DNA of 11,531 bases from Bdellovibrionota bacterium (GCA_044352465.1 JBILDU010000091.1:1-11531), one strand, 5' to 3'. Shown: positions 301 through 2,130, counted from the first letter of the stretch. Notes: generated from the letters alone by a model not told the origin. Numbers and translations: made by a program.

Positions 301-2130
301 CTACTCCTTCGCAAACCGTCCGATCTTCGCCTCAGTGAGTTTTTTGAGATCTGCGCTACTCATGACCAGCGACTCGGTCGGCATACCGCAGTTGAATGCG
401 ACACGGGAATGGGCAAACACCCGTTCGTCGAACCAGGTATCAAGGTTGAGCAGGTTTCCAAACGGCGGAACCCCTCCAACCTCGAGACCAAAACGTGTCT
501 TAATCGCCTCGATATCTTCGAACTCGCACTTCTCTCCAAGTGCGTTTGCGACCTCCTTCATATCGAGCTTCATGTGGGAAGGAACGTTCACCTGAAAGTT
601 TTTCTTGGTCGTCTTGCCACGGAGGATGATCGCCTTCACTCCCTCCTCCATGAGAGTCCCCCGCACTCTCGCCGAGTCGGCCGAGGTGGGAGTCGCCTCA
701 TGAACAAGGTGCTGAAACTCCATCTCTTCTTTTTTGAGCTGACGCACGATCTCGTTCCGGAGATTCTCCGCACCGAAAAAAATCTTAGCTTTGAGCCGAT
801 TACCCGCAATCCGTTTCGGATCGGAGGGGAATAGCGAGGCCTCGCGGACGTTCTTAAGCTTGAGTATCGTCATGGTGAGACGCTCAAGCCCCAGCCCAAA
901 ACCGCCGTGGGGGGGCATGCCGTGCTTGAAGATACTTAGGTAATCGCCGAAGTCGGCGGGATCGAGCCCCTTACTCCGAATCCCCTCCACCATCGAATCG
1001 TAGGTGTGTCGGCGCTGACCACCGGAGGTAATCTCGGTACCGGCGCACAAAAGATCGAAGGTATTGGTGAGCTCCGGTTCCGCGTCGTTCGGATAGGAGT
1101 AAAACGGGCGCTTCTTGGTCTTCCAGTCGGTGATGAAGATGCAGTCGGTACCAAATTTTTCAAAGGCGTATTTACAGAGCTCCCGCTCAGCGTTCGGACT
1201 CAGATCATCCTCAGCTCGTTCATCGAGTCCGGTGCGCTGAAAATAGATCTCTTGAGCATCCTGAAATGACACACGGGGGAAAGGGACATTCTCCGGGACC
1301 TTGATGACATCCCCGCCCAACGCTTTTATCTCCTCGGCACAATGCTCGTGGAGATATTGCATGATAAATTTAATGGCCCCCTCCTCAATGTCGAGGATCT
1401 CATGCCAGTGCTCAAAAAACCCCATTTCGAATTCGAGTTGTTTCCCTTCAGTAAGATGACGGGCGGTATTCGAGTTCTCTGCTCGAAAGAACGGCATCAG
1501 GGCGAATACCCGCTCATTAACGCCGACCATCATCTGCTTATAAAGCTGACTACTCTGAGCGAGCGTTGCCGGGTAGCCGAAGTAATCAACCTTAAAAAAC
1601 TCGGCGCCTCCTTCCGAAGAAGCCCCGATAAGATTCGGAGCAAAATACTCAACAGCTCGCACCCGGTCGTGCATGTAGAGTCGGTAGGCGTGGGCGATAT
1701 CCGCCTGGATCCGAAAAACTGCTTGAATTTGGCGATTCCGCAGCGCTATGGGCCGATGGTCTAGAATTGTATCGATGTCGACGTTGAGCTCGTGTTTGTA
1801 GTACTCCAGCGGCGGCACGTCGACCACCGGAGACTCAACGAGAATTTCCGGTTCGACAAGTTCGGCGCCAAGTTCGGCTTGGGTTGTGCGCTGCACCGTG
1901 CCGGTGACGGTAACGACGGTGCCGATCTGAAGACTGGAGATCTTCCTTAACTCCTCTTTGCTTTGGATAACTACCTGCGCGATACCCGCCCGATCTCGGA
2001 TGATCAAAAAGCTTATTTTCCCCAGCGCACGAAGGTTATGATACCACCCCCGTATCGTCACGCGCTGCCCCGCATGAACTGCAAGCTCGGCCGATAAAAC
2101 TCGTGTCACGTCACTCTCCGCTGTTGTCAT
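301..2130 (-). CDS. aspS: Archaeal/eukaryotic-genre aspartyl-tRNA synthetase (AspRS2-like, class IIb) fused to a C-terminal YbaK/ProXp deacylase domain, 609 aa
   Basis: OB-fold (VTIRGWYHNLRALGKISFLIIRD), flipping loop SEGGAE, LAQSSQLYKQ, motif 2 FRAENSNTARHLTE, RPFYS, EITSGGQR, motif 3 GMPPHGGFGLGLERL. No GAD insertion; core of ~445 aa. YKQ and SGGQR point to Asp rather than Asn/Lys. Confidence 0.9.
   Translation of the reverse strand: MTTAESDVTRVLSAELAVHAGQRVTIRGWYHNLRALGKISFLIIRDRAGIAQVVIQSKEELRKISSLQIGTVVTVTGTVQRTTQAELGAELVEPEILVESPVVDVPPLEYYKHELNVDIDTILDHRPIALRNRQIQAVFRIQADIAHAYRLYMHDRVRAVEYFAPNLIGASSEGGAEFFKVDYFGYPATLAQSSQLYKQMMVGVNERVFALMPFFRAENSNTARHLTEGKQLEFEMGFFEHWHEILDIEEGAIKFIMQYLHEHCAEEIKALGGDVIKVPENVPFPRVSFQDAQEIYFQRTGLDERAEDDLSPNAERELCKYAFEKFGTDCIFITDWKTKKRPFYSYPNDAEPELTNTFDLLCAGTEITSGGQRRHTYDSMVEGIRSKGLDPADFGDYLSIFKHGMPPHGGFGLGLERLTMTILKLKNVREASLFPSDPKRIAGNRLKAKIFFGAENLRNEIVRQLKKEEMEFQHLVHEATPTSADSARVRGTLMEEGVKAIILRGKTTKKNFQVNVPSHMKLDMKEVANALGEKCEFEDIEAIKTRFGLEVGGVPPFGNLLNLDTWFDERVFAHSRVAFNCGMPTESLVMSSADLKKLTEAKIGRFAKE
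304..762 (-). other. YbaK/ProXp (INS-superfamily) aminoacyl-tRNA deacylase domain, YeaK/ProXp-y-like, in frame with AspRS2
   Basis: ~153 aa after the synthetase core. Contains HEATPTS..SARVRGT....GVKAII (conserved Lys at 634-636), GxxxP loop GGVPPFG (457-477) and AFNCG...S. The RGT....G.KA and AFN.G patterns resemble E. coli YeaK as I recall it. Confidence 0.85.

Follow-up and report, generated by a model that had tools for sequence, protein, structure and literature searches.

Hybrid aspartate/asparagine pocket residues in an archaeal-type aspartyl-tRNA synthetase fused to a YbaK/INS-type domain

The best solved relative of the protein described here is AspRS2 of Thermus thermophilus (1n9w, 3kfu), an archaeal-type, non-discriminating aspartyl-tRNA synthetase (AspRS) in a bacterium, which it matches over aa 10-441 with an E-value of 2.5e-95. 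In non-discriminating AspRS, discrimination by the anticodon-binding domain is relaxed by His at the position of W26, and Pro at that of K85, of the Thermococcus kodakarensis enzyme. In the catalytic pocket, the Asp that corresponds to residue 233 of the present protein is seen as an invariable element in the recognition of aspartate, and to our knowledge AspRS is considered able to do without proofreading. The gene analysed here bears on both of these points. It lies on an 11,531-nt stretch of DNA from a Bdellovibrionota bacterium (GCA_044352465.1 JBILDU010000091.1:1-11531; 'the window' below means the whole of this stretch), encodes at 301..2130 on the minus strand a 609-aa fusion of AspRS2 with a YbaK-type domain, and belongs to a whole housekeeping AspRS lineage that has swapped this Asp for the Glu of asparaginyl-tRNA synthetase (AsnRS) while keeping the Lys that AsnRS has lost. 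Judging from sequence comparison, we put at roughly 70% the probability that the product is a working and still aspartate-specific archaeal-type AspRS, with a compensated pocket and a tethered YbaK/INS-type domain. Full-text literature searches turned up no paper on an AspRS-YbaK fusion or on this variant of the pocket.

Pocket residues and their conservation

The reading frame and its translation, with the stop codon at 301-303, give a three-domain protein (its domains and motifs, like the gene, are given on the minus strand). An OB-fold anticodon-binding domain (aa 24-98, 1837..2061; PF01336, E 3.7e-14) is followed by a class IIb catalytic core (aa 120-437, 820..1773; PF00152, E 4.2e-71, with the same span in the genome search), a linker lying between the Pfam limits (aa 442-476, 703..807), and a YbaK/INS-superfamily editing domain (aa 477-598, 337..702; PF04073, 69.6 bits with the cut-off at 25.5). 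The protein exceeds the NCBIfam cut-offs for aspartate--tRNA(Asn) ligase (NF003483, 465.2 bits against 353) and archaeal/eukaryotic-type AspRS (TIGR00458, 378.9 against 368.4), and falls under those for AsnRS (NF003037, 251.7 against 414; TIGR00457, 233.2 against 342.6). In its anticodon-binding domain, H31 pairs with W26 and E86 with K85 of T. kodakarensis AspRS (3nel alignment). Residue 31 is not conserved, being Asn in 110, His in 9 and Ser in 1 of the 120 best homologs, which came from a separate search not keyed on the pocket motifs and are 69-99% identical to the protein.

An earlier note on this DNA had described the pocket as a hybrid of AspRS and AsnRS, using equivalences drawn by eye. 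The residues that it named (S194, K198, G229, E233 and SGGQR) are present, both motifs appear in the translation, and HMMER alignments to solved AspRS, gap-free and of top posterior probability through both motifs, bear out the equivalences: S194 corresponds to the Pro of QSPQ, K198 to yeast K306, G229 to F338 and E233 to D342 (in the yeast 1eov chain the Lys is residue 236 and the Asp residue 272, a +70 offset giving K306 and D342). The first motif, LAQSSQLYKQ (aa 190-199, 1534..1563), retains Q195 and the Asp-type K198 beside S194, and in the second, RHLTEGKQLEFE (aa 224-235, 1426..1461), G229 is followed by K230 and Q231, and E233 by the retained E235. SGGQR (aa 369-373, 1012..1026) contains R373, the Arg common to AspRS and AsnRS, which pairs with the Arg of SGxQR (SGAQR in yeast). 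Motif 3, GFGLGLERL (aa 410-418, 877..903), holds R417, and in FPSD (aa 434-437, 820..831) S436 stands where other representatives mostly have Arg (FPRD).

What the note had stated about the two enzyme families also holds in the aligned structures. AspRS reads QSPQLYKQ / EYLSLDVE in 1n9w, EAWSIDSE in 3nel and 1b8a, and QSPQFNKQ / EFTGLDME in yeast 1eov. AsnRS has lost the Lys, has Glu at the Asp position and in eukaryotes reads QSSQLY, the motifs being QSSQLYLE / ..HVEAE in Brugia (2xgt), QSGQLYAE / ..MVEPE in T. thermophilus (5zg8) and QSAQLYLE / ..HLELE in Pyrococcus horikoshii (1x54). The AsnRS encoded in the window's own genome has SGQLEGE / EFWMIEPE, and across this sequence and the structures the AspRS Lys position is held by Leu, Ala or Gly. 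Set against the features of AspRS, the window protein has the carboxylate-binding Lys and Arg (K198, R373) and lacks the Asp of ExxxLDxE and the Pro of QSPQ (E233, S194); set against those of AsnRS, it has the Glu and the small residue in QSxQ (E233, S194) and has not lost the Lys (K198). The label 'hybrid' is accurate in this sense, an Asp-type Lys and Arg being combined with an AsnRS-type small residue and with Glu at the AspRS Asp position. In one study, which uses its own numbering, the carboxylate binders of AspRS are given as a Lys and an Arg, and the amide binders of AsnRS as a Glu and an Arg (PMC7387524).

We searched 1.84 billion cluster representatives with the synthetase core, aligned the best 150 and used the 143 that were near full length in trees, where an 11-member clade including the window protein can be compared with the 132 other representatives. 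All 11 clade members have Glu at position 233 (others: Glu 4/132, Asp 125/132), Gln at 231 (others 13/132) and Ser at 436 (others: Arg 124/132), the last being part of the clade's signature. Position 194 is Ser, Asn, Ala or Gly in the clade and Pro in 120 of the 132 others; position 229 is Gly in 6 members, Ala in 2 and Ser, Ile or Phe in one each, against Phe in 61, Tyr in 46 and never Gly among the others. Lys198 and Arg373 are invariant in the clade (others: 128/132 and 131/132). With counts of 120 Pro194 and 125 Asp233, the substitutions are rare in ordinary unfused AspRS2; the note had named the opposite outcome, that they are common there, as one that would tell against it. Among the 120 homologs, S194 and E233 are each present in 119 and K198, G229, Q231 and R373 in all, and the set S194, G229, K230, Q231, E233 and S436 is retained in 119-120. 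Because it is fixed to this degree the signature is not a product of chance; it is real, rare outside the clade and under purifying selection.

Residues 194 and 233 do not vary independently. The 143 representatives divide into 116 with Pro and Asp, 14 with non-Pro and Glu, 9 with non-Pro and Asp, 1 with Pro and Glu and 3 with Pro and Ala, so that position 194 is non-Pro in 14 of the 15 sequences with E233 and in 9 of the 125 with D233. The E233/non-Pro194 pair recurs in separate unfused lineages (P0130, P0208, P0210) and in AsnRS, which suggests that the coupling reflects a structural dependency rather than a direct specificity signal. The catalytic and Asp-binding set, residue 233 apart, is invariant across the clade members with Asp (D-type) or Glu (E-type) at this position: E173, Q192, S193, Q195, K198, R216, H225, E228, E235, D359, E366, R373 and R417 are unchanged in all 19. 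With RQDPQLHRQ, which puts Arg at position 198, and with Ala at 233, a small AspRS2-like group elsewhere in the set (P0175, P0206, P0240) has a clearly non-canonical pocket of its own.

Fusion, substitution and genomic distribution

The note had gone on to propose that a relaxed or shifted specificity would explain the appended editing domain, and had suggested checking whether the substitutions and the fusion occur together. PF04073 was present in 9/9 long representatives tested, and in an IQ-TREE phylogeny of 34 sequences (LG+G4, 1000 ultrafast bootstraps) the fused forms all fall within one clade (support 82). Fused forms with a canonical pocket, P0134 (P,K,S,D), P0153 (P,K,M,D) and P0132 (P,K,Q,D), lie outside the E-type clade (support 84), to which P0132 and its unfused sister P0155 form the sister group (support 91). 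In a search with P0134, the best 120 matches including itself comprised 86 fused and 34 unfused proteins with P194, K198 and D233 in 120/120; the editing Lys is present in 86/86 of the fused ones, and the source names are those of Patescibacteria. The editing domain thus predates the pocket substitutions and has a much wider distribution, so that the substitutions cannot account for it.

The distribution also speaks against the proposed link, since fused canonical forms (the 86 from Patescibacteria) and unfused E-type forms both exist. The E-type clade mixes fused members (P0001, P0123, P0125, P0126, P0171, P0200, P0203) with unfused ones (P0124, P0127, P0182, P0224), and across the 143 representatives 7 are fused with Glu, 3 fused without it, 8 unfused with Glu and 125 unfused without it. 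All of this raw association between fusion and Glu lies within a single clade, and phylogeny confounds it. The unfused E-type forms still finish with the fused-type sequence FPSD..R(I/V)A(G/S), suggesting that they arose by later loss of the editing domain; P0124, P0127 and P0224 come from contigs of 42, 9 and 816 kb. A metagenome scan for relatives of P0127 returned only more distant ones: 51 of its 80 loci were parsed, 40 of them unfused with the Pro/Asp pair and 11 with Ser/Glu, these 11 being fused or cut by contig ends.

The editing domain itself was modelled with AlphaFold2 from a 61-sequence alignment (pLDDT 93.8, lower over the first 10 residues). Foldseek places the model about equally near APE2540, Haemophilus influenzae YbaK, lpg1207, Escherichia coli 2dxa and TTHA1699 (TM 0.75-0.82, E ~1e-11). 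In profile searches the top Protein Data Bank (PDB) sequence match is E. coli YbaK (2dxa, 1.8e-11), with ProXp-ala distant (E 0.11), and the domain stays below the YbaK equivalog cut-off (TIGR00011, 47.2 against 153.25); a protein atlas offered only generic PF04073 clusters for it. Membership in the INS/YbaK superfamily is indicated by the PF04073 score, the fold, and the conserved Lys and GxxxP loop. In the alignment to 2dxa, K499 (634..636) falls on the Lys of YbaK's 'YKTLLV' strand, presumably the catalytic Lys of the YbaK family; together with the GxxxP loop (G552-G-V-P555-P556, 463..477), K499 is invariant in 120/120 homologs. As for other domains of this kind, the fused domain is the sole PF04073 match in 3 of 5 chlamydial genomes (G125, G127, G128), whose prolyl-tRNA synthetases (ProRS) match the INS-containing bacterial model weakly and are not of the INS-bearing type. 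The window genome has a bacterial-type ProRS without the INS domain (L095, G000:C153:5976-7208; a 438-aa frame in which model positions 234-394 are missing) and a free 168-aa ProXp-ala-like protein (L005:1450-1956). We also considered the domain as a substitute for D-aminoacyl-tRNA deacylase (DTD, PF02580); among five genomes tested for it, DTD was found in 3 and not in the window genome or G128, with no pattern, and this candidate was set aside.

The strongest evidence that the enzyme is still an AspRS comes from its distribution in 201 genomes of the chlamydial phylum, requested at 90% completeness. A full-length fused ortholog is present in 64 of them and a bacterial AspRS (AspRS1) over cut-off in 155, distributed as AspRS1 only in 135, fused E-type only in 44, both in 20 and neither in 2. 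Of the 46 genomes that lack AspRS1, 44 have the fused enzyme, compared with 20 of the 155 in which AspRS1 is present; among the fused-only genomes, G125 consists of one 2.2-Mb chromosome. In many environmental chlamydiae no AspRS other than the fused E-type enzyme was found, and because this holds for 44 genomes, we infer that the chlamydial orthologs would have to supply Asp-tRNA-Asp and would have retained Asp specificity. The same motifs are present in these orthologs, and the shifted specificity raised in the earlier note is excluded for them. Of the 64 carriers, 62 also have an AsnRS over cut-off, so the fused enzyme need not serve as one. A separate scan, whose patterns were both pocket motifs taken from a 6-sequence alignment, gave 278 loci, the best 80 of which are nearly all labelled environmental Chlamydiota; the motif count of 80/80 among them is biased by the design of the scan and is not used as evidence.

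The window organism is not a chlamydia. Its phylum comprises 124 species genomes, of which 8, its own included, have the fused gene; a relative in the same genus is labelled Pseudomonadota and relatives in the same order Bdellovibrionales, with Bdellovibrionota also among the labels. Six non-chlamydial sequences, those of the window and of L010, L011, L018, L019 and L045, form a clade (SH-aLRT 99) that is nested among the chlamydial ones. Given this nesting, and a gene present in only 8 of the 124 genomes of the phylum, the fused AspRS2 was likely gained horizontally from Chlamydiota.

Weighing the explanations

We favour an account in which the gene product would be an archaeal-type AspRS that activates aspartate and carries a YbaK/INS-type aminoacyl-tRNA deacylase tethered at its C-terminus. 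On this account S194, E233, G229, K230, Q231 and S436 represent a lineage-specific remodelling of the pocket inside an already fused clade, in which the residues that hold the side chain of aspartate (K198, R373) and those of catalysis (E173, Q195, R216, E235, D359, E366, R417) are unchanged. Glu233, in company with a non-Pro residue at 194, would most likely do the job of the usual Asp, by analogy with the same pair in AsnRS. As to the editing domain, we infer that it hydrolyses some mischarged tRNA made on the AspRS2 core. Three points weigh against this account. In the alignment E233 matches the leading Glu of the ..xEPE motif of AsnRS, residue 225 of 5zg8, and in T. thermophilus AsnRS we take Glu225 to read the Asn amide together with Arg364; since residue 233 aligns with this amide-reading Glu, it may plausibly influence which side chain is selected. 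The chlamydial genomes are metagenome-assembled genomes filtered at 90% completeness, where a lone absence is weak evidence and only the complementary pattern is strong. Finally, a bacterial AspRS and an AsnRS are encoded in the window genome (3.13 Mb, 94.9% complete), along with LysRS, GatB, two AsnB-type synthases and the free ProXp-ala-like protein; with two AspRS genes in this genome, the fused one is not forced to be the housekeeping enzyme there. Transfer RNA-dependent Asn synthesis was considered as the gene's purpose, GatB being present, and rejected in view of the two AsnB-type synthases over cut-off and the AsnRS; AsnA was not found in the window genome.

The idea of the earlier note can be turned around, such that the pocket became relaxed under an editor that was already there: Glu233 with Lys198 would also activate Asn, Ser, Thr or Cys, and the tethered YbaK-type domain would remove the wrong residue from tRNA-Asp. 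The position of E233 at the AsnRS Glu would fit this, as would the appearance of the change only in a lineage already carrying the editing domain, and the conservation of the domain's catalytic residues in 120/120 homologs. We nevertheless think it unlikely, as E-type pockets occur without the domain (P0124, P0127, P0224), as does the E233/non-Pro194 pair of P0130, P0208 and P0210, and the fused enzymes of Patescibacteria are fully canonical, so that the editor's job appears independent of E233. Because the substitutions cannot explain the appended domain, its target is to be sought in something common to the canonical and variant fused AspRS. That target might lie outside AspRS errors altogether, the domain being the cell's trans-editor of Cys- or Ala-tRNA-Pro, attached to AspRS2 only by chance, with pocket changes due to unrelated drift. 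Such a role would suit the three chlamydial genomes in which the fused domain is the sole PF04073 match and ProRS only weakly matches the INS-containing model, and YbaK is the top PDB sequence match (2dxa, 1.8e-11). It is improbable all the same: the domain falls far under the YbaK equivalog cut-off with several branches of the INS superfamily about equally close, tethering favours action on AspRS-bound tRNA, the window genome already has its free ProXp-ala-like protein, and a pocket signature so strictly conserved is unlike drift.

The AsnRS-like S194 and E233 might instead be taken as a switch to asparagine, the protein being on its way to becoming an AsnRS, or serving the cell as its AsnRS with dual activity for Asp and Asn. 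This is very improbable. K198 is present in 120/120 homologs where AsnRS sequences have Leu, Ala or Gly, the AsnRS models score the window clade no higher than canonical AspRS2 representatives, AsnRS sequences join P0208 in the tree and not the window clade, and 62 of 64 carriers, like the window genome, have a true AsnRS, with the fused enzyme the only AspRS found in 44 genomes. A softer form of the idea, in which E-type AspRS2 would be a natural AspRS-to-AsnRS intermediate that has gained the Glu and not yet lost the Lys, accepting Asn or another neutral analogue as well as Asp while the older editor removes the wrong product from tRNA-Asp, is improbable too. The E-type clade was tried as the sister of AsnRS and rejected, AsnRS attaching beside P0208 (support 0.906; FastTree, LysRS-rooted, bacterial-type AsnRS only). 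P0208 is an unfused AspRS-like protein with QSCQFYKQ / EFHQIETE, keeping the Lys and having Glu at 233, and is sister to bacterial AsnRS; it may be the better AspRS/AsnRS intermediate. The E-type lineage offers a natural test case for the way in which enzymes tell Asp from Asn and for the possible evolutionary route to AsnRS specificity.

Gene neighbourhood and comparison with known systems

Upstream of the fusion gene, a 203-aa frame (P0002, 2140-2751, minus strand) encodes a protein whose N-terminus is hydrophobic and signal-peptide-like and which matches no Pfam or NCBIfam family. It stops 9 nt ahead of the AspRS2 start codon, and given this short distance the two are likely co-transcribed. 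Further upstream on the same strand, a giant frame of at least 2810 aa (3097-11529) runs off the contig end and has no Pfam family at E <= 0.001. The intergenic region between the giant frame and P0002 (2752-3096) is G+C-rich with runs of G and of C, for example at ~2850-2930; no tRNA gene and no Rfam family was found within the window, this region included.

Like T. thermophilus AspRS2, the window protein has the OB domain, a class IIb core without the GAD insertion, the pocket Lys and Arg, the motif 2 and motif 3 residues, and His at the W26-equivalent position; the T. thermophilus enzyme differs in having QSPQ and EYLSLDVE (Pro, Tyr and Asp at the variant positions), a C-terminus of the form FPRD...RL and no editing domain. 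With AsnRS (5zg8, 1x54, 2xgt) it shares the small residue of QS[G/A/S]Q and the Glu at the AspRS Asp position, but AsnRS has lost the Lys, and the window protein falls under the AsnRS cut-off and outside the AsnRS group in the tree. Its editing domain has the PF04073 match, fold, conserved Lys and GxxxP loop in common with the INS domain of ProRS and with free YbaK/ProX; it is placed at the C-terminus of a class IIb AspRS, whereas INS domains are inserted in ProRS or act with it. The closest likeness in architecture is to the AspRS-YbaK fusions of Patescibacteria (the P0134 family; Roizmanbacteria, Amesbacteria, Woesebacteria and Pacebacteria), which have the same three domains, editing Lys and GxxxP loop, but differ from the window protein in their canonical P194, K198 and D233 (120/120) and in a core that ends in FPRD or YPRD.

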